In this document: one piece after another, positions 1 to 58,906 of the stretch | How the letters are laid out: every line of letters starts with the position of its first letter | How positions within the stretch are numbered: position 1 is the stretch's first letter | Assembly (NCBI GenBank): GCA_900128565.1 | Contig: LT635917.1 | Location: 1-58,906, forward strand | Source: Stramenopiles sp. TOSAG23-6 | Lineage: Eukaryota | DNA: 58,906 nucleotides | Direction: 5' to 3' | The notes under the pieces: generated by a model | What the model saw: only the letters and a program-made list of their open reading frames with translations | Databases searched by the model: none | Told to the model about the DNA's origin: nothing | Translations under genes and position numbers: made by a program

Positions 1-896
1 GGCTCAAAGAAAGGCATTAAAAAAGGCTGCAGATAAAGCAGCAGAGACAGATAATACAGTACGGGAGCTTCGCAAAGACGATACAATGAAACGCCTTACA
101 AAGTTAGTTGGTGGTATCACTGATCCGGAATTTTCTCAAGCATTAGAAGATACACTTTCCACTCTAGGAAAACCTGGAGGTTACAATGGAAATCCAGATG
201 ACGTATTTGGTGGACCAGGAATAGATCCAAGTGTGTCTGAACCTACAGTGGACGCCAATATAGCAAAAACATTACAAATGTTATCTGAAGCTGGTAAATC
301 TGGAATTGATGGAATGGAACCAGCAGCAGCTGAAGCTTTAGGTGAAGACATGATGAAGAATATTATGCAAGATTTTGAACGCATGGGAGAAAAAGAAGAT
401 TTTCAAAATGTTGTAGACGGAATGATGAAACAATTGTTGGCCAAGGAAATTATGTATGAACCAATTAAAGCCATCTGTGAGAAATACCCTGAATGGTTAG
501 CTGAAAATGAACCTTTTCTTGAGCGTGTTGAGTATGAGCGTACGTTTTCATCACGATTTTTTTTTTTCATAGAAAATTTTGTACCTAACAAAAAAATTCA
601 AAAAAAAAATATTTTTTCGCAATACATGGTTTGGACGTCAATATCAATTTATTCAAAGAATTTGCGCTTGTTACGAAACTCAGCCAGATAATTTTGAGCG
701 ACTTATGGAACTAATGCAGGATATGCAGGAATGTGGACAACCCCCGGCAGAAATTGTCAAAGAATTAGCTCCAGGATTACAGTTTGGGTCCGACGGTATG
801 CCAATAATGCCTAATATGGGTCCTGGGATGCCGTCTTTCCCTCCGATGGATATGCCGAATGTCCCTGGTATGAATCCACAGTGTACCATTTGCTAG
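1..896 (+). CDS. PEX19: Peroxin-19 (5'-partial); exons <1-539, 628-896
   Basis: Frame open from base 2. Pex19 C-terminal motifs LLAKEIMYEPIKAICEKYPEWL and LMQDMQECGQPPAEIV, ending in a CaaX box (CTIC). Removing 540-627 joins the two ORFs as YER-FGRQYQ. Confidence 0.92.
540..627 (+). other. Family intron, GT-AT, 88 nt
   Basis: GTACGTTTTC...AATTTTGTACCTAAC...AATATTTTTTCGCAATACAT; restores the PEX19 frame (C|GG = Arg). Confidence 0.88.
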
Positions 897-1183
897 AATA
901 TTTTTTTTTTGCTTAAATAATTTGTTTTTATGATAAATGAAATATATTTTTTGTGTTTATAATAATATATCCACTTTGGTGAAAAAAATTCTGAAATCTA
1001 TAAAAAAAAAAAAAAAAATGTTACAAAAAAAATCACGAAAAACAAATCACAATCGCAATCCAATGACACGTGGCAAAAAAAATAAAAAAGCGCGCGAAAA
1101 ATTTCAAATCAAAAATTCAAATGCATTGTGACATCAAGTTTTCCCCCCTAAAGTAATTTATCTGTAGATAAAATTATTAAATA

Positions 1184-4100
1184 ATGAGTAATAATATTTG
1201 TTTCGCTGCTGCTGCAGAGCGAGGGTATGATGTCAATGAGCTCATTGGCGAAGGAACATTTGCTCAAGTATTCTCTGCGGTACATAAAAAAAGTGGTTCA
1301 AGAGTTGCACTAAAGGTAATGCGTAAGACTGAGCTATCAAGGCGAGGAATGCTACCTCGCGTTCGCGGGGAGATTGAAACGCACGCTTTCTGCTCAAGGC
1401 ACGCAGCTGTAGTAAGAATGTATGATAGTTTTGAAGATTTAAATAGTATTTATATTGTTCTAGAGCTATGTGAAGGAGTATCGGGACCATTAGATTTATA
1501 TGAACTGCTAAAATATAGCCCTAAAAAGTCTCTTGAGGAGAGTCAAGCACGTACCGCCATGGACTCTCTTCTAAGTGCAGTTTTATATTTACACGAGCGT
1601 GGCGTACTACATCGCGATATTAAAGCATCGAACCTTTTACTTTCTTCCCGAAATATAAATAAAAACAATGGGGAAAACAGAAAAGAAATAGGAACAGGCG
1701 CAGCACTTAAACTTGCTGACTTTGGTCTCGCAGTTCGACTTCAGCGTCCAGATGAGCAAAGATTTACAATTTGCGGAACTCCAAATTATTTAGCACCAGA
1801 AGTATTATCTGGTTCAGCACAAGGTACAGCAAGGGATATGTGGTCCGTAGGTTGTGTGTTGTATACGATGCTTATCGGGACGCCTCCCTTTGAAGCACAG
1901 CGACCACAAGAAACCATGGAAAGAATTCGACACATGGACTTCGAACTACCAGGTACCTTATCACTGGAGGCAAGAGATATCCTCGCACGCTTACTTACAC
2001 CTTTTCCAAACAAACGCATCACTGCCAAGGAAGCATTACAACATCCATTTATGAACAAAAACCGCCTTCGAAAACCTCTACAGCAAGAAAAAGTAAAGAT
2101 TTTAGAGAAAAAGCGGGATGTTTGTCCTTCCCGTCAGTTTCCATTGCCCGAAGTTATTGATGTCACAACCTCTCTACTACAGTCTGAAGTTGAAGTAGAA
2201 GCTGAATTAGAATCACTTTTTGGTAGTGATGTATGTGATACATCAAGTCGGAGTATTATGACAATACATTCTACAACTAGTCAAGTGAAAAGAAGTCGAT
2301 ACCCAGGGGACGGTGAAAAGCGCCAGACGACTTCAACAATGTTAAAGGACATTGGAATCGAACCTAATCATATAAATATGGACAATGAAGTGTATTTAAA
2401 GCCTTGTAATACAAAACGAATAAAAGCAGTTTTCAATGCCGAAAGAGTCCTTAGTAAAGATGTAAAAGCAAATCTCGCTGATACAAATAAGAATTCAAAT
2501 ATTCAGACAAAGAGTGTTCATATTTTAAAATCAGGGTGTATTTTATGTGAAATTAATGCAATGAATATGGATAATATATTATGGCTTCAGAGTCCTACAC
2601 GATTAGTACTTCGTATATCTAGAAATGGTCAAATGTGTCATTTAGGGTTGATATACTCCCCGAATTCATTCAAGATCAAAAGAGTAATATCACGTTATTC
2701 TCTTTCTAAACTACCTATCGAATTGTGTGGTATCTATCAATATGCATCAATCATTGTAAAAGCATTGCGCTCGAAAACCTCAAAAGTAGTTTTGTCGTCA
2801 TCTTGTTGGAAAGCTTCTTTAATGGAAAGTAGGGATTTTGTGTTAGCATTTACTCAAGACGAGATGCCGATTACACGTACTGGGCGAAGAATTCAACGGG
2901 TTTTATTAGATGCAAATGGATCAACTGCAACACTGTGGTTCAAAAGTAATGATTCTTGCAACGTGTCACGACATGTCGATAGTATTACACTTTGTCTGAG
3001 TGACACTATCTTTCTGACTGAAGGAAATTCAGACGAAAATGAAGTAATAACTGCTATTTTATTACAAGCTCAACAAATCCAGAAAAAATGTCTTTTGGAA
3101 GAAAGTTTATCCATAAAAAACATGAATTCAAAGTTTCCCATTACAAAAACTGTAAGAGATATCTTTAGTGACGAGCAAATATATTCCCAGAAAACAACAC
3201 AACTGAAACCACCTCTAGTTGTAGGACCATCAATGCGTGATATATCAAATTCGACGCCTTTTTCTTCTATGAGGTCTAACCCAAATAATGATACATCTTT
3301 TTGTACGTATGCTTCACGTGCCAGTTCTGTCTGGACATCCGCGACCAGCTCATGGAATACTTCTGTAACATCAATTATGATGTCTTCAAATGTTGGCGTC
3401 CCAGTCACAAAATACTCAAGAACATCAGATTCCAATGATTCGCCTGGTTGCATTACATCGTCTGCATCTTCGTCAATGTTAACAACTAGTTCTAGTGCGG
3501 TGAGTGGTGGTACATCTATGTTAACGACAAGTTCTAGCGCTGTGAGTGGTGGCAATTTAAGTGTAAATATGAGTAGTGATGCTTCATTTAGCAAATATCT
3601 CATTGCTGGTAATATAGAAAATGATCAGTGGATAGATAATGAAACTTCATGGTTCGTTAGCCCTGAATGTATCGAAGAGTCAGAAGCACAAGTTCAAGAG
3701 ATAAATGAAGATAGAAATGTTCTACAAAACACTTCATCAAGGTCATGTTGTAACATTAAAAAAAACACACAAAACCTAATGGTTTTACAACGTGAAATGA
3801 ATACGCCATGTGTGACTACAGATATGTTATCAGCCGCATCTGATGCATTAGATCTCTTGAAAGTTCCACTTGAAACTTCTATAGAAGAAACAACAAATGA
3901 ACAAACCTGTCAACAAAATTTAAACAATACTCAACCTAATGAAACCGACCTTGAGAACATTTCAGTATGTCAAGCTAATCGATCTTCAGAAGGGGATTTA
4001 CACGTATCGTTCAGCGATGGTGCATCAATAGTTTTAAGCCAAGAGGCAAACTACGTCAGTTACCGTACTTCATTGGAGAAGACTGAAAAAAGTAAAATAT

Positions 4101-4192
4101 TTTATTTAAATGGAATTTCTAGCTCAAATGATCTCCCTAAACATATTCTTGTACGGCTGGCATTGGCCGCTCAAATGGAGAATATTTGGTAA
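1184..4192 (+). CDS. PLK4: Polo-like kinase 4 (SAK-like), single exon
   Basis: Kinase motifs GEGTFA, HRDIK, DFG, TICGTPNYLAPE. Cryptic polo-box-like segment YQYASIIVKALRSKTSKV..KASLME..DF and C-terminal PB3-like VSFSDGASIVL..LPKHILVRL. Confidence 0.85.
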   Translation: MSNNICFAAAAERGYDVNELIGEGTFAQVFSAVHKKSGSRVALKVMRKTELSRRGMLPRVRGEIETHAFCSRHAAVVRMYDSFEDLNSIYIVLELCEGVSGPLDLYELLKYSPKKSLEESQARTAMDSLLSAVLYLHERGVLHRDIKASNLLLSSRNINKNNGENRKEIGTGAALKLADFGLAVRLQRPDEQRFTICGTPNYLAPEVLSGSAQGTARDMWSVGCVLYTMLIGTPPFEAQRPQETMERIRHMDFELPGTLSLEARDILARLLTPFPNKRITAKEALQHPFMNKNRLRKPLQQEKVKILEKKRDVCPSRQFPLPEVIDVTTSLLQSEVEVEAELESLFGSDVCDTSSRSIMTIHSTTSQVKRSRYPGDGEKRQTTSTMLKDIGIEPNHINMDNEVYLKPCNTKRIKAVFNAERVLSKDVKANLADTNKNSNIQTKSVHILKSGCILCEINAMNMDNILWLQSPTRLVLRISRNGQMCHLGLIYSPNSFKIKRVISRYSLSKLPIELCGIYQYASIIVKALRSKTSKVVLSSSCWKASLMESRDFVLAFTQDEMPITRTGRRIQRVLLDANGSTATLWFKSNDSCNVSRHVDSITLCLSDTIFLTEGNSDENEVITAILLQAQQIQKKCLLEESLSIKNMNSKFPITKTVRDIFSDEQIYSQKTTQLKPPLVVGPSMRDISNSTPFSSMRSNPNNDTSFCTYASRASSVWTSATSSWNTSVTSIMMSSNVGVPVTKYSRTSDSNDSPGCITSSASSSMLTTSSSAVSGGTSMLTTSSSAVSGGNLSVNMSSDASFSKYLIAGNIENDQWIDNETSWFVSPECIEESEAQVQEINEDRNVLQNTSSRSCCNIKKNTQNLMVLQREMNTPCVTTDMLSAASDALDLLKVPLETSIEETTNEQTCQQNLNNTQPNETDLENISVCQANRSSEGDLHVSFSDGASIVLSQEANYVSYRTSLEKTEKSKIFYLNGISSSNDLPKHILVRLALAAQMENIW
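3473..3553 (+). repeat. Two-copy in-frame tandem repeat (SMLTTSSSAVSGG) in the PLK4 linker
   Basis: 42-nt period with synonymous differences. Confidence 0.8.
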
Positions 4193-4363
4193 ATTCCAAT
4201 TTCAACTTGTATTTATATTATTAAAAGTTAACCGAAAAAATCGGTTTTGTTCCCCCCCCCAAAATATCAAAATATTTGTGTAGCTAGTTTTTATTACAAA
4301 ATAAAATAAAAAATAAAAAATAGCTTTTTGTATTATTTTTTTTTTATAATGTTTTTATAAATA

Positions 4364-5863
4364 TTAAAAAGTATTTGGAAATATTTCGTCTGAAATCGAG
4401 TCTCCTAATATGGAATCAACTCCTTTCAATTCTTTCCAGCCTCCATACTTTGCTATATAGAGTACTGCAAGTTGATTAGGAAGAGCTCTAAATACAATTG
4501 CAACATCCATTGGTGTAGACTTAAAATCCATATCCATGATTGGCAAATGAAGTATCTGTGTAGTGTCACGGGCTGTGAAGAATATTAAAAAAAAAAAAAT
4601 GTTACATACAAAATTTGGTACAAAAAAAGTTACATTTGAAATGAGTGATGAAAACGTACATTTCCCTGAAGATCAAACGGGGGCGAGGAAGAACCTAAAC
4701 TAGCCCAACTTGTGATAAAGGCACATTTCGTCTTTCCAAAAAACCCAGGGTATTTGGATGTAATTCCAGAGTATGAACCATCTTGCCGAGGAGAAAGCCA
4801 AGAGCGAACGTCTTCTGGTGTTTTGAATCCTCCTTTATCTGCCAAAATCACTCCTTCATAGTTCCCCCCGTATGTTTTGTGAAAAAAATATTTCAAACAT
4901 TTGAAATCGTTAGGTACGAAATTGCGTACGAAAAAAAAATTATAAATTTGAAATGGAAGAGGACAACATACATGTTGCATCTTGCAATTCTTCCCATCTA
5001 CTACGATAATTTATAGTCATCATTGAAATATCAGCATCACACGAATTAAGAAAATGTGATGTAATAATATCATTTGATGAAACATAAGGCACTACATTGT
5101 TCTCAAGAACTCTACTTTTTGCAATGTCAATTTGCTTTTTATCTACATAAAATGCTAGTGGACGCCCCTTTGGCTTACTAAATACACCTTGAACCATAGA
5201 CTTGATAAATGCAAGGCTATTACCATACTTAAAATCGGATTCTCCCATTAACCTTTTTTCCTGCGTTTTCTCATAATCAAATTTACGTTTAGGTATAATT
5301 TTTGGAATTGGAGATAATTCACCAGAGTCGTTAACAATGTCTGCCAATGAGTTCAAGACTTCGTAGTATGTAAAACCGTCAGCAACTACGTGGCTCATTG
5401 AAAAGATCATGGCAAAACTAGTTTCATCTATTGGAGCCAATAAGCATTTAGTGACAGGCGTTTGATGTTGGAGAATAACTTTCCCCTTCCCTACAGCTAA
5501 TTTTCTGCTCAAATCGACGAGACGAGAATATTCCGTTTTCATACTTAGATCTTGTACTGGAGTTTCTTTGATAGTGAGAATTTTCTCAACGTGAAATCGT
5601 TCAATCACAGAAGGATAGACAAGTTGAACACTTTCGCCTTTAAATTTACATAAAGTTCCACAAATCCAAGGATTTTTTTCAGCAACGAGATACAACCGAT
5701 TTTCAATGTGAGTTATGACGTTGTTAATATTTCCTCTAAAAAATGTTATAGTGCAAATTGGTGGATGTTTAAATTGTCCTGTTGCGCCTGAACTAAGTTC
5801 TCTCTTAAATAGCGGCTCTGCACAGTCATAAGGACAATTTTCAATAGAAATACCGTTTCCCAT
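4364..5863 (-). CDS. CoA-dependent (HxxxD) acyltransferase-like protein; exons 5863-4972, 4871-4660, 4567(or 4555)-4364
   Basis: SHVVADG HxxxD motif; three ORF fragments joined in frame by two family introns. Confidence 0.65.
4568..4659 (-). other. Family intron, GT-GT (92 nt) or GT-AG to 4556 (104 nt)
   Basis: GTACGTTTTCATC...AAATTTTGTATGTAAC...AATATTCTTCACAGCCCGT. The first AG is out of frame; both the positional end (4568) and a later AG (4556) are in frame. Confidence 0.7.
4872..4971 (-). other. Family intron, GT-AT, 100 nt
   Basis: GTATGTTGTC...TTTCGTACCTAAC...CACAAAACAT; joins DAT-YGGNYEG in frame. Confidence 0.82.
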
Positions 5864-6125
5864 TTGTTACTATGAAATAGAAATCACGTAGTAGTAGTTA
5901 CCAGTAGTATGTAGCAAATAATGACAACAAAAAATTGTTGCCGTTTGTAAAAAAACGCAAAACAAAACGCCACGTGTTTTTTCTCGATTCAGTTCAAAAG
6001 GAAACACATGAGTCCATAGTACATGGTACAAATAGGTACTGCAGTGGAATACATACTACGAGATTTTGCCTCTAGCTAGGAGCCAGTATTCTCCGTCGTG
6101 AATATTTTAGTTGAATATTTTGACA

Positions 6126-8675
6126 ATGTATAATGTGTCGTTTGCATCCCGAACAGTGATATCTGTTTCAACTCGTCGTTTGACGATGGTTGTGTCTCAG
6201 AACTCGAGACAGGGCGTACATTGCCAAAAGCGAAATTTCAGTATACGAACACCCTTTTCAAAACCAAACCGAAACAACAGAAATAAACGTTTCTTTTCAG
6301 CAGCATCAAATAGTTTAGCATCACAGCGTCATGTAAAGGCGGGTGGAATTATAGATTTGGATACAGACCACGAATTTTGTGATAAAAATGACAGGAAAAC
6401 ATATAATAAAATGGGAGTGTCTTTTCAAAGTAGTAGTGAATCTATTGTTACTCCAGTTGAAGAAGATAGACAAGACGATGAACCGCCCACAGTTCAAATA
6501 GTTACACAAAAGTTAAATCGAGAACAAAGTAATGACCTTCTTCAAGGTGTACTAGATTCGGAAATTATAGGAAATACTGATTGGACCGGTGAGGAGTTAA
6601 TCTCACAACTTTTAGCAGATGTTTTTCAGTTACAGCCCAACGTAAGTGCAGAAGAGTTAGTCTCTATGATCAATGATTTCAATACAAGTAAAGATAGTAG
6701 AAATTACAGAAAAGGTATGGCTGCAAGATTTTCAAGGTTGTTATTTGGGTTTATTAAAAAACAAGCGGAAAAAGCTCCGGCGGACATCAAATCGAGTTTG
6801 ACTTCTCCCCATCCTCCCGAATTTCTGAAAAGTCTGATATCGAAATATATGCTTGGTGAAGGTTGGAATTCTGCATATGCAGAAAGTGAAATTTCTAGAC
6901 CAATCAATGATGCACTTGTGTATTTACGATCTCATTGGGCTGTAGAACTTCAAGCTCTACATAGTACCGCTTTAGCTTGGTCAGATGAGTTTGATAATTC
7001 TCTATATTTACACCGCGAATTTGGTACGAGAGCTTTACGATTACATCGTATATTACGTGCAACATTGTCAAAAGAGAAATATATTTCACTTTTTCAACTT
7101 TTAGGCGCTTTTAATGATCAAAAAGGAATTCATTCAAAACGTGAAAAAGAACAATTATTTCTTGACATGGAGTCTCTAATAACAACTGACGAAAATTGGT
7201 GTCCACGTGACATGTCGCCTGAAGCTTATGATCCTTCATATGCCAAAAACTCAGAAAAGAAGATTAAATTGACGTTTGGTGTATCTCCTGGTGTTCCGGT
7301 TGGTGGGAAGGTTAATGTTGTTATGCCTGATGGACAAGTGAAGGAGGTGACACGTGGCATGCAGAATGAGTATGATTTAAATGCTCAAGTTACGCGTGGT
7401 ATGCAATATGAATATGATTTAAAGAAAAATACAGCAGAAGCAGTTCCTGCAGAAACAACATCTGTAAACTTTGATATGAAAGAAGTTGAGAAGGCGCCGA
7501 AAGTTGTTGAATCGCCAGAACATAGACATTTGGTAGAAATGTTGAAGTGGTTGATTCAGGGAAAACCTGCCACTGAACGCCCTTCAGATTTAAGTGTTCC
7601 TCCAAGTAATATTGCGGCTGCTATTTTACATGCTCGATATAGATTTAGACGAGGTGTTCGACGTGTTCAAGTGAGAGAGCACAAGAAGCAAAAGCGTCAA
7701 GGACAACGTGAAAACGAAAAGCGAAACGAACCGTTCGAATCTGGTAAAATTGTTGATCGTGCTAGCCATGAAGATTCTGATATAAATGAGGCGAATCAAT
7801 CAAATGATTCACTTGATCCATTAGATGCTGATAAATCTATGAATTATATTGATGTTACTCCGAAAAAGAAAAAATTCGACAAAAGTATTCCTCCATTTGT
7901 TTTACAAGCAGGATTAAACCCTGCTCCTTTTGTTTCAGCCAATGTGTTGAGAGAGAACAAAATACCTAATGACGATTTAGTTGTACTTGTTGAATCTGTT
8001 CCAGCATTTGTAAGTGAAAACGATTTGCGTAAGGCTTTTTCACGATGTGGTGAAATTGAGAATGTATCGATTATTGGGAGAGAAAAAAATGAAGCCAAAA
8101 TAGTTTCTGAAGACAATGTGAAGATAGAAAATAAAGTAGAAAATAAAAGTAAAAAAAGTAAAAAGGGTAGAAAGGGTAAAAAGAAAGGTGACGCTCGAGC
8201 AGATGGAGAGAGAGGTAAACAAGAACTTTCATTAAGAAGTAGAAATGCCCGTAGACTAGCCATGAAAGACTGCTGGCGTAGTTTCGGAGTAATAGAATTC
8301 AAGAACAAATCTGGTCGAGATGTTGCTTTGTCATCCTCATTGAGATGTATTGGAATGTTCATTAGAGGTGAAGCACTACGCACAGTTTGTCCAAAGTTAA
8401 GGTCAACTTTGTATGTTAATAATTTAGATTTTAATCTTACAACTCATGAAGTGGCACATATGATGACTGATATGCATAGTTATGGTGATGTTCCAGGTAT
8501 TGAAATTAAAGCCAACCCTAAAGGTGAAAATGGTTCAATTTCTGGTACTAATTCTGGGCATTGTTTAATTGAATATCCAAATTATGCTGTCGCAATTTCT
8601 GCCTTAGCAAATGTCACTGGTCAACATGTTGATGGAAAGCGGCTCAAAGTAAGATGGCCAAAAAGTAAGTATTAA
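6126..8675 (+). CDS. RRM-domain protein, probably organelle-targeted
   Basis: Two C-terminal RRM-like segments (LVESVPAFVSENDLRKAFSRCGEI..FGVIEF; LYVNNL..GHCLIEY). Arg/Ser-rich N-terminus resembles a mitochondrial presequence. First ATG at 6126. Confidence 0.7.
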   Translation: MYNVSFASRTVISVSTRRLTMVVSQNSRQGVHCQKRNFSIRTPFSKPNRNNRNKRFFSAASNSLASQRHVKAGGIIDLDTDHEFCDKNDRKTYNKMGVSFQSSSESIVTPVEEDRQDDEPPTVQIVTQKLNREQSNDLLQGVLDSEIIGNTDWTGEELISQLLADVFQLQPNVSAEELVSMINDFNTSKDSRNYRKGMAARFSRLLFGFIKKQAEKAPADIKSSLTSPHPPEFLKSLISKYMLGEGWNSAYAESEISRPINDALVYLRSHWAVELQALHSTALAWSDEFDNSLYLHREFGTRALRLHRILRATLSKEKYISLFQLLGAFNDQKGIHSKREKEQLFLDMESLITTDENWCPRDMSPEAYDPSYAKNSEKKIKLTFGVSPGVPVGGKVNVVMPDGQVKEVTRGMQNEYDLNAQVTRGMQYEYDLKKNTAEAVPAETTSVNFDMKEVEKAPKVVESPEHRHLVEMLKWLIQGKPATERPSDLSVPPSNIAAAILHARYRFRRGVRRVQVREHKKQKRQGQRENEKRNEPFESGKIVDRASHEDSDINEANQSNDSLDPLDADKSMNYIDVTPKKKKFDKSIPPFVLQAGLNPAPFVSANVLRENKIPNDDLVVLVESVPAFVSENDLRKAFSRCGEIENVSIIGREKNEAKIVSEDNVKIENKVENKSKKSKKGRKGKKKGDARADGERGKQELSLRSRNARRLAMKDCWRSFGVIEFKNKSGRDVALSSSLRCIGMFIRGEALRTVCPKLRSTLYVNNLDFNLTTHEVAHMMTDMHSYGDVPGIEIKANPKGENGSISGTNSGHCLIEYPNYAVAISALANVTGQHVDGKRLKVRWPKSKY
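7348..7420 (+). repeat. Two-copy in-frame repeat VTRGMQ(N/Y)EYDL
   Basis: 42-nt period duplicate inside the CDS. Confidence 0.7.
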
Positions 8676-8717
8676 TCTAGCATTTTATAAATAATATATT
8701 AAACAATTAATAGAATT

Positions 8718-8820
8718 GTATGTTTTTTTTTCCAATTTTTGTCTAATTTTTTTTTTCATACGAAATTTCGTACCTAACAAAAACATTTAGAAAATTCAAT
8801 TTTTTTTTTTTGAAAAACAA
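8718..8820 (+). repeat. Non-coding copy of the intron family (probable 3'UTR intron; 3' end uncertain)
   Basis: GTATGTTTTT at 8718 and CATACGAAATTTCGTACCTAAC at about 8757-8778, starting 43 nt after the stop codon. Confidence 0.7.
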
Positions 8821-8896
8821 AATCTTGGTTTTCATAAATTTGAAAGTATAAATTGTTGACACCTAGTAGAAGTTACTACATATAATCATATCATAG

Positions 8897-10526: not shown

Positions 10527-10786
10527 GCTAGGTTGGTAACACTTAGTAACACTTCCTGTTCAAACACGCAAAAATAATCTATCGAAAAAGCTTTTCTTTT
10601 TTCTTCGAAATTCAGCTTTTTTGACCACATCACATAGTGACGTCATCCCAAGTTTATTTTGGCCAAGTGCTACGTATAGTCTATATCACATATGACACTA
10701 CCTGGCTATAAGATAAACAATCTAATTTTGTGAGCAAATTGTTATACTTTAGTGTATTCTTTTTTTTTGGCAAATTGTATTGGATC

Positions 10787-12675: not shown

Positions 12676-12971
12676 TTAAAAAAATCATTTTTATTCATAT
12701 TGAGTTTTAGAGGTTGTTTATATTTTGTAATAGTTTGAAATTTTATTGTTTTTGTTTCGAAGGAAGTAGAAATGTTTTTAGTAGGTAAATATAAACACAT
12801 AAAAAAAAATTGGAGAGGAGAGGGGGGTTTTCTCTTTTTTCGGAGATTATTCAGTTACATCTTACTACAGTAGATAGTCAAAAGATATCCTATCAATTGC
12901 AGCTTTGTTAAGTAAAAAAGAACATCGAAGAACAAAGGAATGAACTAACTACTCACTAGGCGAGACCAATA

Positions 12972-17565: not shown

Positions 17566-17779
17566 ATTTTGACAAAACTGTTGATCCAATGTTACGATTT
17601 ATTAACGCATACGTTATTTTTATTTCTATCACTCCTTGCTTGCGCTTGAGATACGTACTATTCCAAATACTAGAGGTACTGTTAGTATCTTTTTTTGTCA
17701 ACTACAAAAGTCAAGTGGTATCGCATCATTACACTATATTTCGATACAATTAACACAAAGAGTATTTCAACTTTCTCAT

Positions 17780-19852: not shown

Positions 19853-19873
19853 TAAACTTTATTTACATATTAA

Positions 19874-26418: not shown

Positions 26419-26443
26419 TGTGAAGCGCAAATTGCGCTTCACA
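26419..26443. repeat. Perfect 12-bp inverted repeat TGTGAAGCGCAA-A-TTGCGCTTCACA
   Basis: Read directly in intergenic DNA. Confidence 0.85.
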
Positions 26444-26516: not shown

Positions 26517-26626
26517 GTATATTTTTCGTTAATTTAATAAAAAGACATCTTGTTTCTTTTGTTTTTTTTTGGTACGAAATTTTGTACCTAACAAAAACTT
26601 TTACAACATATTTTCTTACTATACGT
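26517..26626 (+). repeat. Non-coding copy of the intron family
   Basis: GTATATTTTT...GGTACGAAATTTTGTACCTAAC...CATATTTTCTTACTATACGT between RPLP1 and YIP1. Confidence 0.65.
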
Positions 26627-26856
26627 ATATAAGTTATTTCTTGTTTATTGAATATTTATTGATAGTATGCTTGACACAATTTTAATTATTGGAGCTTGTA
26701 CTTTCCCATGTTTATTAATTCTGTTTTTATGATTTTTATGATTTGTTGCGTAGAAATGAATTGCACAGATGTCACAAGTTGACTAAGTTGAATTACAACA
26801 CTAACAACATAGCTCTGAGACAGCTAAGAGATACTGAGATTACTTCACGTTTGTGC

Positions 26857-34255: not shown

Positions 34256-34417
34256 TGTTTCAATTGAAGCATTTCATTTTTGGTATTTGAAAGATTTAGT
34301 GATAAAGTTACACACGATAATCAAATGTCATCCATACACAATCTTTGGTACCACAAAGTGTCGTGCTATATATTGATACGGAATATTAATAATTATGTCT
34401 TGGCTTCTAAATCTTCG

Positions 34418-34447
34418 TTTTTTTCATAGATAATTTCGTACCTAACA
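34418..34447 (+). repeat. Degenerate non-coding core of the intron family
   Basis: TTTTTTTCATAGATAATTTCGTACCTAAC between convergent genes; no clear donor or acceptor. Confidence 0.5.
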
Positions 34448-34464
34448 TCTACGAAGTGTAATAC

Positions 34465-45124: not shown

Positions 45125-45223
45125 CACGTTATAGTAAAAGTGTAAACTAGAATTATAAATTAGTATCAGAATTATTTATTTTTTTATCGTGGTCAATAGA
45201 AAATTAACTTGTAAATAGACAAT

Positions 45224-51200: not shown

Positions 51201-53845
51201 AGCCCTTTCATTCTAGCCATATCATCAAATCTACGTTCTACCTTTTCCCACATGACAGCTATTTGTTCAGCCATCATAAGTTGTATAATGTCATCACGTG
51301 TTGGTTTCTTACCTTTGTCGCTGAGAGATTGTTTCATTTGTCGCATGCGGACCTTTGCATTCCATTTAACTTTTCTCTGACCGACCATATTTTCTTTTTT
51401 TTCAAATTCTACACGTACTCGTTCAGCTGCACCCTGCTTGGCTCGTTTAAGAGCTTTGAGGAGCGCAGCACGTTCTTTAGTGACAATAGTACCATGTCGC
51501 CCTTGTCGTCCCCTAAATAAAGTTTGTATTTTTTCTGAAGCTTTCATTAAGATTAAATTATCATGAACTTCAGCGTTTTCATACCACCCGTGTTTCAATG
51601 CAACTGTCTTTCCACCACCACCTGTATTCCGTGGCATCATATCAGCATAATTTGGTTTGAGAGGATCGGACCTACCCATTAGAAGCGCACGCTTATGTAT
51701 CCTCGATTTATTAGCATTTCCCAAGAGGGGTCTAAATTTAGTTGCATCTTTATTCATACTGTTGATAAAATTCGACATAGTGATCATTCCTGCTTGTACT
51801 TGTTCTATACACGACATGTGCAACAATTGGAATTCGCTCATATGGGTGTATCTGTGTGGCAATCCAAGTAATTCGGAAAAGAACATAGAGCTATGTATTA
51901 GTTCAAGACACCATTCACGAAATCTATGCTGACTGAGAAAATTCGTACCACCACTATCATATTTAAATGCTCGAGCTACAAGCCCTTGTAGTTCTGAGTT
52001 GGTAGCCCTTCGTGATGGTTCCACATTTGCAAGACTTTCAATACCACGTGTAGCTCGTACTAATAAATTAAGTAGATCTTCCTTTGTCATCTTTTCATCA
52101 CCTACTTCATGAGATGTTTTGAAGTGCCAATATGCCCAATCCATTTTTTCTCGAAGAGATGATGGTAAATACATATTATTCGAATTTTTACCACAAAAGA
52201 AAACAACAAGAAGAAAGATATCTCGCAAATCTGCACCTGGAGCTCCGAGTTCATTGGCAGCATCAGGTGTAAGTTCTAACACAGCTTCAAATAAAACTGA
52301 AAATTTCGCTTCGCGAACACGCAATCTTTCTGCAAATGCTTGCTTATCACGAAGATATTTCAACTTCTCTTCGCTTTCATCGAATACTTTCTTTGCAGCA
52401 TCAACTTCACCTTGAAGCATGATGATAATCCCGCGTGAAATAGTATCATCACCTTCAGTTTTTTCTTTCAAGTCTTCTTGTTTTTCTTTCCATTTCTTTT
52501 TATTTTGATTCCAACGTCTTCCCATCAGTCCAATTTGTTCCTGATATCGATTATATAGTACAAGACCACGTGGCATTTCCATTAGAAGAGACTCTTGTCT
52601 CAAAGCAGTGTGGTACGTTTGTCGAAGACTCTTTTCTTTACTATTTGCTTTCATATCATTTTCCCGTGCTTTCTTCAAGCTTAATGCATCTTCCTTCTTT
52701 TCTTTTGCTTTTACCTTGTCTTCTATACCTTGCCATGTTTTCATATATACTTTATACTCATCAGGGTCCAGTGCCTTTTCATTCGTGCGCCTTTCTTTTT
52801 CTCGTTTTAAGCTTGCTTTTTCTCGTCGCTCTTTTCGCGATTCTTGTGCATCTTTACGTCGTTTTTGTTCCTTTTCTATGGATACTAGATGCTCTTGAAG
52901 CTCATTGTCATTGATAGAGAAATCCTGTGGATCATAGGCATCTTCCTCCAAAACAGATTTCTCCGATTTTGAGAGTATTTCAGATTCTAAATCACTTGCA
53001 AGTCTCGAGCTAAAACCAATAAAAATGGGGCTCATAATTTTGACGTCGAAAGCTTTTTTCAAAAGTTTTTTTCGAGCATATTCTATTATTATTTCGTCTT
53101 CATCAGTCCAATCTTCATCATCATCCTCATCGTCGGATATAAAAGCATCAACGTCCATGTCCTCACCATCATTAAAAGCATCTTCGTCATCCTCATTATC
53201 ATCATTTTTTAAAAGAAGTTTCCTTGATCTAGGTCGAGTTTTTTTTGATCTTTTTTTACGTTTTTTTCGTTTTCTATTATTTTCAGCGTTTTCTTGCTTT
53301 TTGCGAAATTCCCTTTCACGTTCCAATTTAGTTTTCTTTCTTCTTGGTTTTGAGTTTCCCTCTTTTTTCTTAACACGACGCTCTAGAAGGAGATCTTCAT
53401 CGCTAGTATCGTCTTGTATGCTCGACGACATATTCTTTTTCTTTTTCTTTGGGAAAAATATTTGATGCTGTTTTTCATTTGAAGCATCATCATCTGATTC
53501 TATATCTATCTGTGGAAAGTTTCTTAAATAATGCTCTTCTTTATTAAAATGTCCTATTTCCATGGCATATTCCTTTACAGCTGGATGCCAGACACTTCGA
53601 GTTTTTGCCCTTTGATCGGAGTCTATTTTGCGAGATATATTCTCAATTACCTTGAAAAATTCAGACCAATATACCCTCCAAGATCCATCTTGAAACCCTT
53701 TGAACATTTTGATAGCCTCAGTAGCATCATGGGCACTCCAGCGTTGAAATATTTTATCTAGATCATTCTCACGGATTGCATCCACAACTTCTGGCGCGAG
53801 GCGAACACCAGTAAGAGAGAAACCACAACCAAGTGAGGCTCCCAT
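45224..53845 (-). CDS. Giant single-exon protein: EF-hand-like/IQ + Clu domain + LamG/ConA-like domain + cysteine-containing LRRs
   Basis: Clu-like VPLQCVVDFLGFRV, GTDGKFYILNPSRTFPP, EMHTRGMNMRLLG, LVEMAARALK; LamG-like FSIECW..WYHIVCTYDG..MYING; many LxxLDLxxCxxITD repeats; MGASLGC N-terminus. Confidence 0.8.
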   Translation of the reverse strand: MGASLGCGFSLTGVRLAPEVVDAIRENDLDKIFQRWSAHDATEAIKMFKGFQDGSWRVYWSEFFKVIENISRKIDSDQRAKTRSVWHPAVKEYAMEIGHFNKEEHYLRNFPQIDIESDDDASNEKQHQIFFPKKKKKNMSSSIQDDTSDEDLLLERRVKKKEGNSKPRRKKTKLEREREFRKKQENAENNRKRKKRKKRSKKTRPRSRKLLLKNDDNEDDEDAFNDGEDMDVDAFISDDEDDDEDWTDEDEIIIEYARKKLLKKAFDVKIMSPIFIGFSSRLASDLESEILSKSEKSVLEEDAYDPQDFSINDNELQEHLVSIEKEQKRRKDAQESRKERREKASLKREKERRTNEKALDPDEYKVYMKTWQGIEDKVKAKEKKEDALSLKKARENDMKANSKEKSLRQTYHTALRQESLLMEMPRGLVLYNRYQEQIGLMGRRWNQNKKKWKEKQEDLKEKTEGDDTISRGIIIMLQGEVDAAKKVFDESEEKLKYLRDKQAFAERLRVREAKFSVLFEAVLELTPDAANELGAPGADLRDIFLLVVFFCGKNSNNMYLPSSLREKMDWAYWHFKTSHEVGDEKMTKEDLLNLLVRATRGIESLANVEPSRRATNSELQGLVARAFKYDSGGTNFLSQHRFREWCLELIHSSMFFSELLGLPHRYTHMSEFQLLHMSCIEQVQAGMITMSNFINSMNKDATKFRPLLGNANKSRIHKRALLMGRSDPLKPNYADMMPRNTGGGGKTVALKHGWYENAEVHDNLILMKASEKIQTLFRGRQGRHGTIVTKERAALLKALKRAKQGAAERVRVEFEKKENMVGQRKVKWNAKVRMRQMKQSLSDKGKKPTRDDIIQLMMAEQIAVMWEKVERRFDDMARMKGLSDNAVNAFRTMIGNKVRPPPNLPDTERKRALVRAQEALPEAAELFRGGEESSEFLLRLEMARPDPSYTQLYERMRWMHKFVTEHKARNLLLECPSKRILLQKFRFWPLPQIAEHYVNNFNFREEWAVAFAKSLKRILHTDLEYGKMTNRALSLQRKRDATLKAMVEYRAGQALRVQKEAAERAILMAQSQEDPERAMQILEANKKKMRDKLEHLSQKVKRRMAAVEEAELKLKEAKREKERISKIVRVQEAVGDDANAALQMMQVSPDDRTNWVERFYHASEMPERTPAQKYEKYKEMHLVIDLFVDTAETHAKKIVKEFFMPRSEKLAKPFAVKKGDGGRFVREKFAFHGIRFKVLLDYHGVYNGNDQAAMKMGGAELRATMAYYRCNIPKLRVPLQCVVDFLGFRVLCTAILPIVHEERDKKGKLLGLQEKLVFGSIDRGFHVTMKNQDAQSYLKQAAARLNIKEHRVKGRDDMMACDAFTAFDTRCYVGTDGKFYILNPSRTFPPIDFDVLSKRLGQSSSARGQSIFWRHFRPELLHALDKPLSSDAFNLVAHNGDRIQAVKDGAECTAATHQLIHEIVTDFAEEVSNRSASEIEAIFWSGEMHTRGMNMRLLGEIRSRFWRKLDGTAGLEFGKKHILCNKDWRLEIRRGSQLRIGSSYYKVRADGEWDNIQIPVHPPVNDEPEGDIEVYAGEVKNEANSHAVRSSLLVEMAARALKGIIRVQARESARIQQLFSESAFAEVACHIFNLMTGAAPGYGKFWLEDVMLAIEERFGRFALSGIERWRLHTIMTENYLVPTLSRLCEMLKIEVTAPTKERFELQPVCFRFEVPDIHNVSARIRLSVEQLRHYSKGSVLAADAKMAGNTTYRARILTPKDGSDPPVGYWPLDDLVNSKHAKNLGSAGEKLNGRYSRAVRFRADGFVKNDSAEDALCSKGIAFVEGARAHVDFTASDLLCPMQPKVHFSIECWTKVTGAPQKEKVLIENGRFLLQASKANYWIFLVYMPLEMVNLRVKSPKPFEYNTWYHIVCTYDGGQCRMYINGHLVAFLDVTRSVKEAKEAHTKFRAKELIRIKDEENTESIKCEARARKVIAEELKNPEAKREMLKTAMKLYQETTLKISLSKKTDAELKEEGIIRITKRQAEDIVRQGLIRERQNSFMKDIQNSCNRRREAIQVDEEHMKSAMIERSRMPLRIGSSDGDGGKYFIGTVQQVAFYRIGLTAEHAHEHYLMGTSDLRLESDRLYYLASLSFKRVLNENPYDRNTLVAYASALCNHFGYGTDRKRGEAEYRARIKDALLMFRNGQNAAGAAAMFEGLPDTGDPTFADICLDIWEALKEINPAFFEDNVTKLAYIPIKFGLMRPGMPIKYVRCAAEIYQYALHVQPDIYNDIHLGWLHEIHDPRIVVFFVDRAQRMLPTDVIDLEDLEDAPASDLLAICYNCRNVLQLKLNRAEHLNDTILNSMTERMKFLEKLDIENCRTITDDAMQCLGESCGRLRRLNIAGCIRVSDLGLCEITKHCDDLRELDIRHCKFITDVSISSLAKGCCKLEYLDLTWCVHVTTKGVKSWADTAPFGSKLKELKMRGCSRIGDDAIFSVSKTFTCLTTLDLAHLPQLTDKSIKNLTHNCWQLEWLDLTNLPYITDDCFWFDEVGDGRPEAQRLMLRRISSIFLNDCISLSNHAILGIAKRAKSLHKLQLNSCTNLDVDSLWKNFFLDEEKGESRHLGLVEIDLGHILALSDQAIEGFIDNMINLEYISLAGCPKVSDASMSVIAQRMNRVHRLNLSFCTQITDAGLKVLAEQLFIEELDISHCKYVTDKGLGYISESFNTLRILNVTWDILLTDVSLASLSKCCPALKSCDISQCHRMTEDGIATFIKTMPGCDVIRKNLDRLFAPRGTDSQGLPLPDLAKENAAKLAELQLHYARTGQRTKKREPTEEEKLENEASILKTVIAAQKKMNPALMRAQKRNQSSLSSDSERSNNQEGSNIVEELR

Positions 53846-54157
53846 GAATTACTGAGTTTAGCCAGAAAATTCGTCTAAATAATTAGTTGTACCAGAATTA
53901 TCCATTCTATCATGAAAGTAACATTGTAAGGAGAAGTTTTTCGAAAGACCTTGAATTTGGTGATACTAGTATGCAAATAAGAGAGATTGCTTCGGTTACG
54001 ATCTGATCTGAGTCAACAGTTACATTTTTCTAGCTAAATTCGAAATTCGCGACCGTTGGAAAAATTTGAAGAAGATACTCAACAAATAAAACAAACAACA
54101 AACAACAACAACACATTGATATAAGATCTCAGATCTAGCTATAATCTACTTCCAGGG

Positions 54158-56973
54158 ATGCTGCCTGGCACCCCAAGGGAATTACGGATTGCCATTTCAA
54201 ATGCAAAAAATAAATTGAGTGAATTACAAACAAATTTGCCGGATAGATTAAAAGAGCTTAAACATTTAAAGAATGAGTTATCCAAGGAGCAACTACAAAC
54301 TGAAGACTTGTGTGAAGACTTCTTGGATAAAACACTTGAAGCAAAGTCAAAATCAGCAGAGAAGGCTAAAGTAAATCGCGTAACATGGGATTGTCCTCGT
54401 AGAAGAATGAAAAATCGTTGGATTGGCACAGATCCTCATCCAAAAAGTGTTGATGCAATTGTAAAGAAAAAAACTGAGGAGACTATAAAAATAATAGAAA
54501 GACTCCGCTCAGAGCTATCCTTTTCACTATCGCGTGAGAAGGGAGTCACTTTACGAACGATCAAAATGATGGAACAAATTCGTGCTAGTATTAATTTGCA
54601 TAATATTACTAGAAGAAGTACTTTATTGACTCAAAGATTAGCTGACCTTTCTCAGAAAAAGGAGAACGATGATAAAAATGTAGAATTATCTAAAGCCAGT
54701 TCTTCAGACTATCATATCGAGACGTTAAAAGATAGAAAATATGAAAACCATTGTGAAATATTATTAAGGTATACTGAAATGCTGGACGATCCTATTTTCA
54801 TTGTGTTGTCAAGATTTGACGAAATAAATGATGAATGGGAAGAAATAGGACGAAGTGAGGTGTCTTCACAAGTTGACGGCACATCTCCGAGCTTTCTAAG
54901 AACAACTGTAATACCGACTGATGGTCGATCATACCCAATTAATATTAGTTTATATAGCATACAAATGGATGATAGGATTGCCATTAAGTTCGTAGGTTCT
55001 ACAGAAACCTCTCTTGCTGAGCTTGTGGATGATAATGGTCGTATGTTTTCATCATAATTGTTTTTACCTAAATGTTTTTTTCGTACGAAATTTTATACCT
55101 AACGATTTTTTTTTCAAATATTTTTTAGCATCGCATATGAACTGCATTTGTTTATTTATAAAAGAATTGGTGTCGAAGATTCGAAATCTGGAATCCTTTC
55201 ATTGCGTCTTTTACCAAACATGTTTAAAAAAATAAAGCATTACGACTTTGTTGGAACTCATCGAGAATGTACGTTTTATTTTTTTTTTCAATTTCGATTT
55301 TTTTTTCGTACGAAATTTTGTACCTAACGATTTTTTTTGAAATATTTTCCCAAAATACATGTGCAACATTTTGTTTATCTATACCAGATGTTGAACAGAT
55401 TACCCCGGGACTTCGTTTAATAGAACAAACTCAAGAATCTCCATTTTCCATCATCGTACCATTCCAACTTCTCGCAATATTTATCGAAAGGATAAAGAAA
55501 ATGATTGGATTCTTGAAAAGTTCAAATTTTGAAAATGTAACAACGAAACAGAAAATTCAAATTTCTGTAACTTTGAAACATCAATCAAATTTATTACAAG
55601 AATATCAAAATTATCTAAATGAATTAAGCGAATATAAACAACCTTTTCTTAAAACTGTTGATTATATACAAAACAAAACAGCACTGCGATTTGTTCCAAC
55701 AAATTGTCATTTAAATTCTATGCTACTTATTAATGGTAGTAACACAGAAACTATTTGCACTGTCACAGCTGGATTTCCTGCTGCTCATTCAGTAGGATTT
55801 CGTACAGGAGGTCTCCTTTCCCTCTGGGAGAAATTTCATGAAGCATCAGAAAAGTATAAAGATAAAGATGTCTTCAGTATCGGAAAAGAAGGACCATCGT
55901 ATAAAATAGACAAAGAAGTCTCAATAGCTAATATACATGATCTTGCTACACAAAGCATCAAAATAGCACGGCGTAGGGATGTCGTGTTTTCTCAGGCAAT
56001 GTCCATATTGATTTCAAGTTTTCAAGCACAGCTACGAGTGATGTCAGAAAAATCAGATTCATCGTATGCACGGTGGTGGAAGCGGCTGGTAGATGTTGGG
56101 TTTCTCATCCATTTCAGTACTTTTATTGAACTTGATGAAGACAGCAGAGCTCAACTGGAAGACATTGTAGATATAGTAAACTGCCTTCAAAATGTTCACA
56201 TACTTGTAACACAAAAAGAAGCACCAATGAACAGTGGTATTTGTATTCAATGCAAAAAAAAAGATTACGTTATAGAATTTTGGTCACCGGAAATAGATTG
56301 GAGTCGAGTTCCACATAAATATTTAAAAAGTCACCGAATTTCTATATTTCCAGTTCTTACAGCTCTAAATGTACGTATTGATAGGCTTGGCAAACATGTT
56401 GAAGCTTCTATGCTCTTGCAGAAAATTAATGAGACTGCTTTAACAGCATTAAAAGACTATCAAGATCAGATTCTGGAAGCAAATATTGGTGTAGCGGTTG
56501 CTGCTATGTTGCAGCCTAACTCGCATGGTATTGTGGAAGATGAAAAGTCAAGGAATGAAAAGGTACAATTATTAATTACGGAAATGAAAAATATACCAAA
56601 GCAGCCAGTACATAATTCCAAACAGACGTTTCGAGATTCTAGTGAATTACACGACGATGTTGTCGACTCTCTAATATTATTTCAAAATATAGCAATTCAA
56701 AGTGATTCAGGTCATGTGATTCTATGTGTAGATGGCATTGACATTTCTCACATGGTATTAACATTAGAGAATGCAGTATTTTTAGTTGAAAAGTATGGAC
56801 TATCACCAGAAGAGTTTAGTAAAATAATGACAGCGATAAGAAGTCGAGGTGTATCTCCTACAATATGCGAAAAAAATAGAAATTTACCTTTTTACAGATT
56901 TAGTCAGGATACCTCAGAGCATTTACCTCCATTTTTACGACCACCGAGAGAATCAATAAAGCAAAGTTCATAA
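54158..56973 (+). CDS. Inositol polyphosphate 4-phosphatase-like protein (C2 + INPP4 domain) with degenerate catalytic motif; exons 54158-55040, 55137-55268, 55361-56973
   Basis: C2-like EIGRSEV..SPSF; INPP4-like FVPTNCHL, GFPAAHSVGFRTGGL, DVVFSQA, VTLE-like LTLE; CVDGIDI in place of CKSAKDR. Confidence 0.75.
55041..55136 (+). other. Family intron, GT-AT, 96 nt
   Basis: C|GTATGTTTTC...TTTTATACCTAAC...AATATTTTTTAGCATCGCAT|AT; the TAG at 55128 is out of frame. Confidence 0.8.
55269..55360 (+). other. Family intron, GT-AT, 92 nt
   Basis: AAT|GTACGTTTT...TTCGTACGAAATTTTGTACCTAAC...CCCAAAATACAT|GT. Confidence 0.85.
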
Positions 56974-57502: not shown

Positions 57503-57654
57503 TTAGTTCATAGAGCTCACTGGTTAGTCTATCGAGCTTTTATCGTACAAATGATGTCATTGTAGTAGTGACATGTATAGAATAGTTGGTATGGTTTATA
57601 TGTGGTGATATTGATTAAATATTGAACATCAAAACAATAATTTACGTATGTTGT

Positions 57655-58843
57655 TTAATATTTATTTTTGAGAATTAAAAGCCTTGTCCGTCTTTGGTCC
57701 ATTGGAATAACTTCCCGCAAAATTTCTTGCACTCGCACAATAATCGAATCTTTATCATACAGTACTGAAATTGAACCAGCTATACAGACTTCAAGATTAT
57801 TACAACTCTTATTGACACTTTTCTTCGAATCTTTTATCGGTTTTGTCGTTGATTTTGAACGTTTTTTTTCATTCTCTTTTTTTGCCTCTTTCATCTTTTC
57901 GTCGTGACGCATTATACAATCTTCTCGAAGTCTACGAAGAATGTCATTGGCATTTTCACCATTGGAAAGCATGCGGAGTCGTGGCATTCCACGTTGAAGC
58001 AATTTCTGGGCTGCTTTGGCACATGTGGGGCAAGTCACGTCCAGAACGATGGTGTCTATTGTGCCTCTATATAAGGATTCCTCTCCGTTTGCGTCTACAT
58101 GTTTGACTTCACAACGTTGTCCACTCTCAAAACCATCCTGTTTGAGTAAAGCTATTTTATACGTATCATCCAAGGCCAGTTTTAATGTATCGTCGTAATC
58201 TCCACGTACTTCACGACCTCTAAATATCTTTTGTATTATAATTGCTTTATCGTTTTCCATTTTGCGTTTTTCTTTACATTTTCTAAATTCTATACGTCCA
58301 CATTGACCACGGTACAATCTCTGGGTAATCATTGCTGATTTATACCGTCCTTCAGAACGGCGTTTTTTTTGTAATGCGTTTAATCGACCAATTTTACCTC
58401 GTTGTACGGATTGTATACGAACTGCTGATAGAGTGTGAAGTTCTGGTGTTGGTGGAGGAATTGCAATGCACTCGTCGCCAACTTTCTGTGCAAATCGCGT
58501 TGCATTGATTGCATCGAAGCATTCTTTAGCTAGAGCTTCCTTCCCAACACTTGCAAGTGACCACATTAGTGTACCTTCTGCACGTTTGACCAAACGCCAT
58601 GCCTCGTCGATTGATGAATGTAGTCTCATTTGATTTGGTTTGTGTTTTTGAAGATAAACAGGCATATCATTAAAGATACTTTCTACTTGACGAAGAATTC
58701 GTTTTGTAGGTGTTAAATCATAAAGATCGATATCTTTTCGTAAAATTGAAACACGAGTTGTGCATTTAACTATAGTATTACTACGCCGCAACAAGGAAGT
58801 CTGAAGCTTCATTTCAGTGCTTACATCTGCTTCATTGGTTTCG
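57655..58843 (-). CDS. IQ-motif protein, 3'-terminal exon (5'-partial)
   Basis: Three IQ-like motifs (IQSVQRG, TQRLYRG, IQKIFRG); frame open up to the family intron at the window edge. Confidence 0.7.
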
Positions 58844-58906
58844 ATGTATTCTGGAAAAATATTTCAAAAAAAATCTAAAAAAAATTGTTAGGTACAAAAT
58901 TTCGTA
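58844..58906 (-). other. Family intron, 3' part only (ends CCAGAATACAT)
   Basis: TACGAAATTTTGTACCTAAC...AAATATTTTTCCAGAATACAT; truncated by the window end. Confidence 0.75.

Follow-up and report, generated by a model that had tools for sequence, protein, structure and literature searches.

In Micromonas pusilla and Aureococcus anophagefferens, introners form one short, sense-only family that lies in many unrelated genes and carries splice signals; in the parts of the two reports drawn upon here, they also have terminal inverted repeats and a target duplication, with one splice site supplied by the element and the other at the duplicated target, and the introns that they give are GT-AG (PMC11282704, PMC9860276). 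A family of similar build occurs in contig LT635917.1 of Stramenopiles sp. TOSAG23-6 (assembly GCA_900128565.1), all 58,906 nucleotides (nt) of which were analysed and are referred to below as the window. Here, however, the apparently duplicated target is usually AT and the intron ends in AT; moreover, the duplication measures 2 bp, as against 3-9 bp for the introners in the available text of PMC9860276. We consider it probable that these sequences (E1 to E24; Table 1) all go back to a single mobile element, small and non-autonomous, which acts as an intron, that is, an introner, of an uncultured marine stramenopile, and that the major spliceosome cuts it as GU...CAU.

Other described introns share part of this anatomy. 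In the accessible text on Fritillaria borealis, fewer than 10% of the introns are GT-AG, AG-AC and AG-AT introns are common, an origin from miniature inverted-repeat transposable elements (MITEs) is suggested and the U2AF subunits are duplicated (PMC13326754, PMC11282704). The likeness lies in its numerous young introns, probably of MITE origin, whose 3' ends are AC or AT in place of AG; in F. borealis a major-type spliceosome removes them. In F. borealis, however, GT is mostly missing too and the introns are very diverse, whereas in the window the GT and the branch site are canonical, one family is dominant and the host is a stramenopile. The U2AF duplication is the kind of change in the machinery that an earlier note on this DNA proposed for the present organism. 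The marine protist Amoebophrya likewise has repeated introns with inverted repeats, short direct repeats overlapping the borders and non-GT-AG ends; as far as the available part of the report goes, its introns show no preferred border dinucleotides and rely on 8-20 nt hairpins, and U1 was not found (PMC7789003). The window differs from Amoebophrya in its uniform borders, in elements that fold weakly and in a donor that fits U1 and U6 in textbook fashion. Finally, human and mouse have a small number of conserved GT-AT introns, some U2-type and others U12-type, so that GT-AT splicing is chemically possible and within reach of both spliceosomes; animal GT-AT and U2-type AT-AC introns are single exceptions among hundreds of thousands, whereas GT-AT is the majority class in the window (PMC1557818).

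A literature search covering main texts found no description of a GT-AT intron family. The earlier note had known of no description of its observation; this still stands for the family, but rare GT-AT introns in animals (PMC1557818) and non-AG ends in Fritillaria (PMC13326754) were already on record in the portions of those papers used here. In the available text of two papers on uncultured marine stramenopile genomes, the word "intron" appears twice, both times in the methods, with "splice" and "canonical" absent (PMC5778133), or does not appear (PMC8163842). The accessible parts of two introner surveys do not mention MAST (marine stramenopiles) (PMC9860276, PMC12130899), and, by its own account, one of them dropped any family whose splice sites were unfamiliar and which had no transcript support (PMC12130899). 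The known kind is thus the transposon-derived intron with a non-canonical border; what is new here is the combination of a canonical donor and branch site with a uniform CAT end, in a stramenopile host.

The window is AT-rich eukaryotic DNA (GC 0.31-0.41) with long genes that mostly run without interruption. The motif GTACCTAAC, allowing at most one mismatch, occurred 25 times where 6.04 occurrences were expected (standard deviation 2.48, maximum 15; none of 100 shuffles reached 25), and 18 exact matches could be aligned across about 100 nt. A family profile was built from 13 seed copies, and an nhmmer search of the window with it returned 24 stretches at E <= 5.1e-4, the 13 seeds included. 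A weak match at 47963-48011 (E 0.008), antisense within an uninterrupted open reading frame (ORF), was left out of the count. The 24 copies comprise 20 complete ones inside ORFs, one cut by the end of the window and three incomplete remnants that lie outside ORFs. Every one of the 21 genic copies points in the sense direction, their insertion phases are mixed, and together they interrupt 11 genes: PEX19, an acyltransferase-like gene, an unnamed gene (8900-10559), dihydroxyacetone kinase (DAK), a WW/IQ/cNMP-binding protein gene (12960-17303), an unnamed gene (17606-19852), and the glycosyltransferase-61, TOP2, SpoU-like, INPP4-like and IQ-motif genes. As with introners, many similar copies therefore sit as introns in unrelated genes (21 copies, 11 genes). 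The profile search arrived at the same 20 complete and one partial elements, 11 genes and uniform orientation that the earlier note had given; the remnants outside ORFs were absent from its list, and of its length range of 88-118 nt the upper bound stands while the lower one drops to 86 nt. The remnants (E4, E12, E14) lie in likely untranslated regions or spacers and each lacks one end. An ORF of 8.6 kb (45224-53848, minus strand), encoding a CLU domain, a laminin-G-like domain and leucine-rich repeats, has no intron at all, so the insertions are spread unevenly among genes. The window sequence contains a single N, at 43631. Outside the window, a metagenome scan with a 16-nt pattern gave no real element among the 117 loci listed (nhmmer, E <= 1e-4), the pattern being too short, and a 25-nt core of the element had no match in viral contigs and none in genome contigs.

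Aligned copies share an initial block, GTAYGTTTT, a central one, TTTCGTACGAAATTTTGTACCTAAC, and a final one, AAATA-TTTTT-CAMAATACAT. The best conserved of these are the donor and the branch motif, both of which match U2-type signals, as the earlier note had recognised. The first six bases are GTAYRT, followed by a T-rich run, in 19 of the 20 complete copies, and the branch motif CTAAC (CTAAT in E21) was present in all 15 GT-AT or GT-CT copies examined, 33-47 nt from the end. The branch site, TACCTAAC, is thus followed by an A/T-rich tract of 33-47 nt and then by ..AATAC and two last bases. U12-type introns have the donor consensus RTATCCTT and a branch site close to the 3' end, about 10-20 nt from it. 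We asked whether the elements could be introns of the minor spliceosome, for which GT-AT and AT-AA ends are acceptable. CCTAAC bears a loose likeness to the U12 branch consensus, but all 20 donors lack ATCC, and the distance of 33-47 nt between branch motif and end differs from the roughly 10-20 nt of U12 introns. Seven GT-AT and eight AT-AA introns do figure among the non-canonical U12-type introns of four species in the part of the survey used here (PMC1557818, Table 2). In the light of the donor sequences and the branch distance, use of the minor spliceosome is highly improbable.

To assign the borders, we fixed the donor at the conserved GT and tested candidate ends for their ability to keep the flanking long ORFs in frame. 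Among the 20 complete copies there were 14 GT-AT introns, one GT-CT (E7), two GT-AG (E17, E19), one probable AT-AA (E13) and two with ambiguous ends (E2, E5), a tally identical to the one noted earlier. All 14 GT-AT ends read CAT (ACAT in 12, TCAT and GCAT in one each). Few signals of eukaryotic genes vary as little as the terminal AG, a constancy that structures account for by pairing between the last G of the intron and the first; here, the AG that marks U2-type GT-AG introns closes 2 of the 18 copies with an assigned end. That most introns of this organism end in CAT, as had been proposed, holds within the window and is, for the organism as a whole, an extrapolation from 59 kb. In E13 the first base is A instead of G and the last is probably A instead of T, which could represent a paired change of both ends or a dead intron.

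In E17 and E22 an AG lies 5 and 8 nt, respectively, upstream of the in-frame end and out of frame. As the only in-frame ends of these two copies lie past an AG, splicing seems to bypass the first AG that follows the branch site. Within the elements AG is rare, both downstream (2 against 9.6 expected) and upstream (3 against 14.0 expected) of the branch site; we dropped this depletion as independent evidence, since the copies share a common ancestry and the shortage extends to both halves.

The passing over of an AG in E17 and E22 would suit a positional choice of the 3' end, in which the cut is placed by a constant spacing, measured either from a signal within the element or from the branch site, the target duplication supplies the last two bases and step 2 of splicing is independent of AG. 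U12-type introns pick their 3' ends largely by distance. Such a choice would also suit the bases found at the homologous position, which are AT in 14 copies, CT in one, AG in two and perhaps AA, GT and TT, and the fact that the CT of E7 and the AG of E19 copy the 5' flank. However, AT makes up 14 of the 17 defined ends, and E1, E20 and E22 end in AT though their flanks differ, so that AT itself seems to matter. Moreover, the odd ends AA, GT and TT are exactly the ambiguous cases, and a distance of 33-47 nt between the branch A and the end leaves no fixed ruler from the branch site. We therefore regard a purely positional choice as unlikely.

Judged from the sequence, exact removal from GT through AT is required by the ORFs and by conserved residues. 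At E8, exon 1 ends at positions 201-203 of the Pfam Dak1 profile and exon 2 begins at 202; in PDB entry 1un9_A, exon 1 ends at residue 218-220 and exon 2 begins at residue 219. This contiguity in both references means that removal of GT..ACAT rebuilds GMG-IHGE exactly, and read-through gives GMGMY where the 1un9_A structure has GMGIH. For TOP2, the alignment of six homologues is free of gaps over the E20, E19 and E18 junctions, and the TOPRIM_C profile is contiguous over E18 (position 88 on one side, 89-90 on the other). Use of an in-frame AG at 37426 would delete ARK from the E18 junction, where homologues have [DE]RK. Once E17, E16 and E15 are taken out, a single ORF remains, which encodes a SAP domain (E 3.7e-12) as well as an acidic tail. 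TOP2 seems to run past these three family introns into the exons for the SAP domain (34799-35077, minus strand) and the acidic tail; the public gene model ends earlier. At E1, 15 PEX19 homologues are gap-free over the junction, with R at the junction codon, and relatives with 62-76% identity are uninterrupted at the site, in records that may be of DNA or RNA. A search for short RNA-derived PEX19 peptides of the same organism yielded none that shows the junction directly, the best match having 76% identity and none being near 100%; the matches were used as homologues only. The acceptor of E22 received no confirmation from homology: the closest INPP4-like homologues are 26-29% identical, with gaps of 5 to 27 columns around E22 and E23. 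Thus, at E1, E8, E18, E19 and E20 the profile or the homologues run on without a break across the junction, and removal restores the ORF as it does for introners.

In 13 of 18 evaluable copies the dinucleotide that precedes the GT recurs as the last dinucleotide of the intron (AT/AT in 11, CT/CT in E7, AG/AG in E19), a repeat absent from the earlier note; the exceptions are E1 (GC/AT), E20 (CA/AT), E22 (TC/AT), E17 (AT/AG) and E13 (TA/AA). The exon after E20 (38268-38276, minus strand) opens with ATGTACG, seven bases that equal AT plus the start of the element, which may reflect chance or a target preference. Because of the AT/AT repeat at their borders, most copies can equally be read as AT...AC introns that yield the same mRNA. 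In AT-AC introns, a known but rare class, the A at +1 and the C at -1 form a pair. In this register both cuts would fall two bases further upstream (NN-GTAYGT...ATAC), and the introns would be of U2-type AT-AC, a class whose existence is recorded in the available text of PMC1557818. The 11 copies with AT before the GT give the same mRNA in either register, and the RNA at E9, with its 5-nt ambiguity, is likewise indifferent. The AT-AC register fails, however, where the two differ. The codon at the E1 junction of PEX19 encodes R in the GT-AT register and W in the shifted one; the motif is present in 16 of 106 homologues, of which 9 have R, 4 N, 2 M, 1 T and none W. At the E20 junction of TOP2 the residues are Q and I, and Q occurs in 10 of 97 homologues and I in none (22 more homologues lack the motif). 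In addition, the match of an RNA contig at E1 begins at 628 and not at 626. Under the AT-AC register the 5' ends would be AT, CT, AG, GC, CA and TC, and the GTAYGT that fits U1 and U6 would lie 2 nt inside the intron. The junction residues of PEX19 and TOP2, together with the RNA start at 628, support GT-AT as the register, and we consider the AT-AC alternative very unlikely.

A sequence search led to DNA datasets and to five metatranscriptomes in which the share was small; contigs from three RNA runs, and from an independent DNA metagenome (X3), were aligned to positions 1-19900. RNA contigs stopped matching at two element borders, which supports removal and does not prove it. At E1, a 197-nt contig (record 18) of the poly(A) run X8 matches 628-804 without a difference, and its 20 preceding letters are unlike the element. 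At E9, a 269-nt contig of X8 (record 23) matches 17046-17280 and continues for 34 letters beyond, and a contig of run X9 (record 32) matches from 17372 and is preceded by 49 letters; neither of these stretches agrees with the element. The end at 17280 and the start at 17372 fit removal of 91 nt, with a 5-nt ambiguity over TACAT. DNA contigs of X3, in contrast, extend 27-47 nt into the elements (to 11495, to 17312 and from 17329); it is thus the RNA contigs, and not the DNA contigs, that depart from the genome sequence at the borders. RNA cover elsewhere was patchy, and uncovered parts are uninformative. The ratio of depth over elements to depth over exons was high in X3 and in RNA run X6 and far lower in the poly(A) runs X8 and X9; we gave these ratios no weight, contig depth being a poor measure. 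Long loose ends at 11228 and 13860, common to X8 and X9, are probably conserved parts of other organisms' homologues of DAK and of the WW/IQ/cNMP-binding protein.

These data also bear on whether the elements are removed at all. Among the observations that the earlier note had named as overturning its proposal are transcripts that retain the elements and reads with CAG instead of CAT. The former is countered at E1 and E9 by the departure of the RNA contigs from the genome sequence, and the latter by the presence of CAT in 14 separate copies and in the loose-end consensus sequences of other runs. The idea that the genes are pseudogenes, or that CAG was read as CAT through an assembly or base-call error, can point to the thin RNA coverage; it conflicts with the same 14 copies and consensus sequences, with the long ORFs and intact domains that flank every copy, and with the RNA contigs themselves. 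It is the least credible of the explanations weighed here.

Removal could in principle proceed without a spliceosome: a structure might bring the ends together, the route of euglenid nonconventional introns, or the elements might be excised from DNA in the manner of ciliate eliminated sequences. The GUAU and AUAC ends can pair with a 2-nt 3' overhang and do so in 4 of 15 minimum-energy folds, and border repeats resembling target duplications are also found in euglenid nonconventional introns, according to the available part of PMC11282704. The folds are weak, however (z from -2.12 to +1.01, with 1 of 15 below -2), which makes structure-guided, euglenid-like removal unlikely. Moreover, the donor and the branch motif are U2-type and the best conserved blocks, the borders are uniform, and the independent DNA metagenome X3 has elements at the same places. 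Both non-spliceosomal routes appear quite remote.

Removal of the introner by the major spliceosome would be consistent with its U2-type signals, and an origin from a transposon with target duplication with the border repeats. The ends GTAT..ATAC form short inverted repeats; the family is a highly abundant repeat in X3, whose summed depth reaches thousands at elements, against about 7.5 in flanking single-copy sequence, a value that is not a copy number. In the proposed mechanism, the element would bring a U2-type donor, GTAYGTTTT, and the branch site, and its 3' end would arise from ..ATAC plus a duplicated 2-bp target, usually AT. The odd 3' end may thus derive from the target-site duplication. 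The major spliceosome would then cut before the GT and after the two bases past ..ATAC, so that the last base would be U where it is normally G; frame and conserved residues would be restored exactly after excision of GU...CAU, and the element would be tolerated in genes because it is spliced out. Such splicing would imply tolerance or adaptation in the recognition of the 3' splice site, and hence a changed spliceosome. An Rfam search of the window returned no family, so there is no small nuclear RNA (snRNA) in it.

Several observations weigh against this reading. Judged by frame only, other ends are permitted in E15, E16 and E21, and likewise in E10 and E11, whose lengths are multiples of 3. 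AG closes two of the members and is scarce within the elements, so that it is probably still read as a 3' site. The RNA contigs cover 2 of 21 introns and are known by their coordinates, not by their unmatched letters, and no splice joint is among the joints listed, which are repeat-induced between copies. The 2-nt direct repeat is missing in 5 of 18 copies; three of these, E1, E20 and E22, differ at both bases and yet end in AT, so that AT itself appears favoured and a simple duplication model is incomplete. No transposase, empty site or insertion polymorphism came to light, although transposase was not specifically searched for.

A further-reaching proposal, which we put forward tentatively and hold to be possible but doubtful, is that splicing step 2 no longer needs a terminal G. 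The 3' cut would be set by signals of the element, two bases past ..ATAC, the last two bases would be the duplicated target (AT, CT or AG), and the spliceosome, through U2AF35, Prp8, Slu7, Prp18, Prp22 or the snRNAs, would have been retuned to a group-II-like GU...AY end. If so, upstream AGs could be passed over, as in E17 and E22, and a transposon could spread as an intron into any AT site.

Beyond the family, one other intron was found in the window, in the myosin gene. Its existence agrees with the earlier note; its GT-AG borders share their claim with GTAAGG..ATAT (21490-21594, 105 nt), which is equally in frame, while the obvious GTAAGG..ATAG is out of frame. A pattern search for more GT..CTAAC..AG introns was too permissive to discriminate.

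Table 1. Copies of the element in the window and the one intron outside the family. Ends are given on the strand of the gene.
Feature	Position	Strand	Gene or setting	Ends	Length (nt)	Phase	Remarks
E1	540-627	+	PEX19	GT..ACAT	88	1	5' flank GC, not slidable; in frame
E2	4574-4659	-	acyltransferase-like	ambiguous: GT..CA, GT..GT (to 4568), GT..AG (to 4556) or AT..AG	86 (GT..CA)		GT..CACAG (87 nt) breaks the frame
E3	4872-4971	-	acyltransferase-like	GT..ACAT	100	1	in frame
E4	8717-8787	+	directly past the stop of an RRM-protein ORF	partial: donor half and branch motif			nhmmer E 1.2e-11; ORF on neither side
E5	8973-9066	-	gene 8900-10559	ambiguous: GT..TT (homologous position) or ATTAG	94 or 103		last intron of the gene; in frame
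E6	9431-9548	-	gene 8900-10559	GT..ACAT	118	1	CACAG 10 nt downstream out of frame
E7	9766-9854	-	gene 8900-10559	GT..ACCT	89	0	flank CT = terminal CT; ACAG 10 nt downstream out of frame (stop after 26 codons)
E8	11467-11558	+	DAK	GT..ACAT	92	2	interrupts the motif between GMG and IHGE
E9	17286-17376	+	WW/IQ/cNMP-binding protein	GT..ACAT	91	0	
E10	18466-18555	+	gene 17606-19852	GT..ACAT	90		multiple of 3, no stop; frame uninformative; read-through would insert a Phe/Ile/Asn-rich stretch
E11	18731-18826	+	same gene as E10	GT..ACAT	96		multiple of 3
E12	26559-26628	+	between ORFs	partial			nhmmer E 2.6e-10
E13	29836-29929	-	glycosyltransferase-61	ATACGT..ATAA	94		probable AT-AA; TA/CA ends also in frame; Pfam GT61 in downstream exon
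E14	34399-34447	+	between two convergent genes	partial			nhmmer E 1.3e-5
E15	34704-34797	-	TOP2 C-terminal region	GT..ACAT	94		AG 7 nt downstream opens another frame; acidic tail from ACAT reading, Leu/Met-rich string from AG reading
E16	35078-35172	-	TOP2 C-terminal region	GT..TTCAT	95		AGs at 35096 and 35069 also in frame; next exon encodes SAP domain (PF02037, E 3.7e-12)
E17	35273-35377	-		GT..ACAG	105		AG at ACAT-homologous position; CATAG 5 nt upstream out of frame
E18	37435-37536	-	TOP2	GT..ACAT	102	0	
E19	38085-38175	-	TOP2	GT..ATAG	91		flank AG = terminal AG
E20	38277-38373	-	TOP2	GT..ACAT	97	2	flank CA, not slidable
E21	44267-44357	+	SpoU-like	GT..ACAT, or GT..ACAG (to 44363)	91 (ACAT)		both in frame
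E22	55041-55136	+	INPP4-like	GT..CGCAT	96		acceptor taken from family homology; TTTTTTAG 8 nt upstream out of frame (stop before next donor)
E23	55269-55360	+	INPP4-like	GT..ACAT	92	1	
E24	58844-58906	-		..ACAT			3' part, cut by window end; CCAG 6 nt upstream in same frame
Non-family intron	21488-21589	-	myosin	GTACAA..ACTAAC..ATAG	102		in frame; Myosin_head domain in upstream exon

The best matches of TOP2 and DAK are public gene models of the assembly itself, with names beginning GSMAST32, which are identical to the window wherever they align. In the TOP2 model (P0002; 35359-39842, minus strand) GT-AG borders were forced, nine residues are read out of E20, and CTLILTE and ARK are lost. In the DAK model (P0228; 10712-12675, plus strand) GT-AG was likewise forced, giving ELGMGMYRGRG instead of ELGMG-IHGE-RGRG. 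Public annotation has evidently missed introns of the family. Gene finders limited to GT-AG mis-model every affected gene, and as the forced models lose conserved residues, many loci are probably corrupted in the proteomes of this abundant ocean lineage, on which phylogenomics and the mapping of metatranscriptomes draw.

If the main intron class of a free-living organism keeps its donor and branch site in textbook form and ends in U, it offers a natural experiment on the choice of the 3' splice site. Such an organism would be a cleaner case than Fritillaria or Amoebophrya, in which both ends are scrambled. It would also show how the 2-bp target of a mobile element can be enough for it to make an intron at any such site, with no need for AG, which bears on bursts of intron gain.

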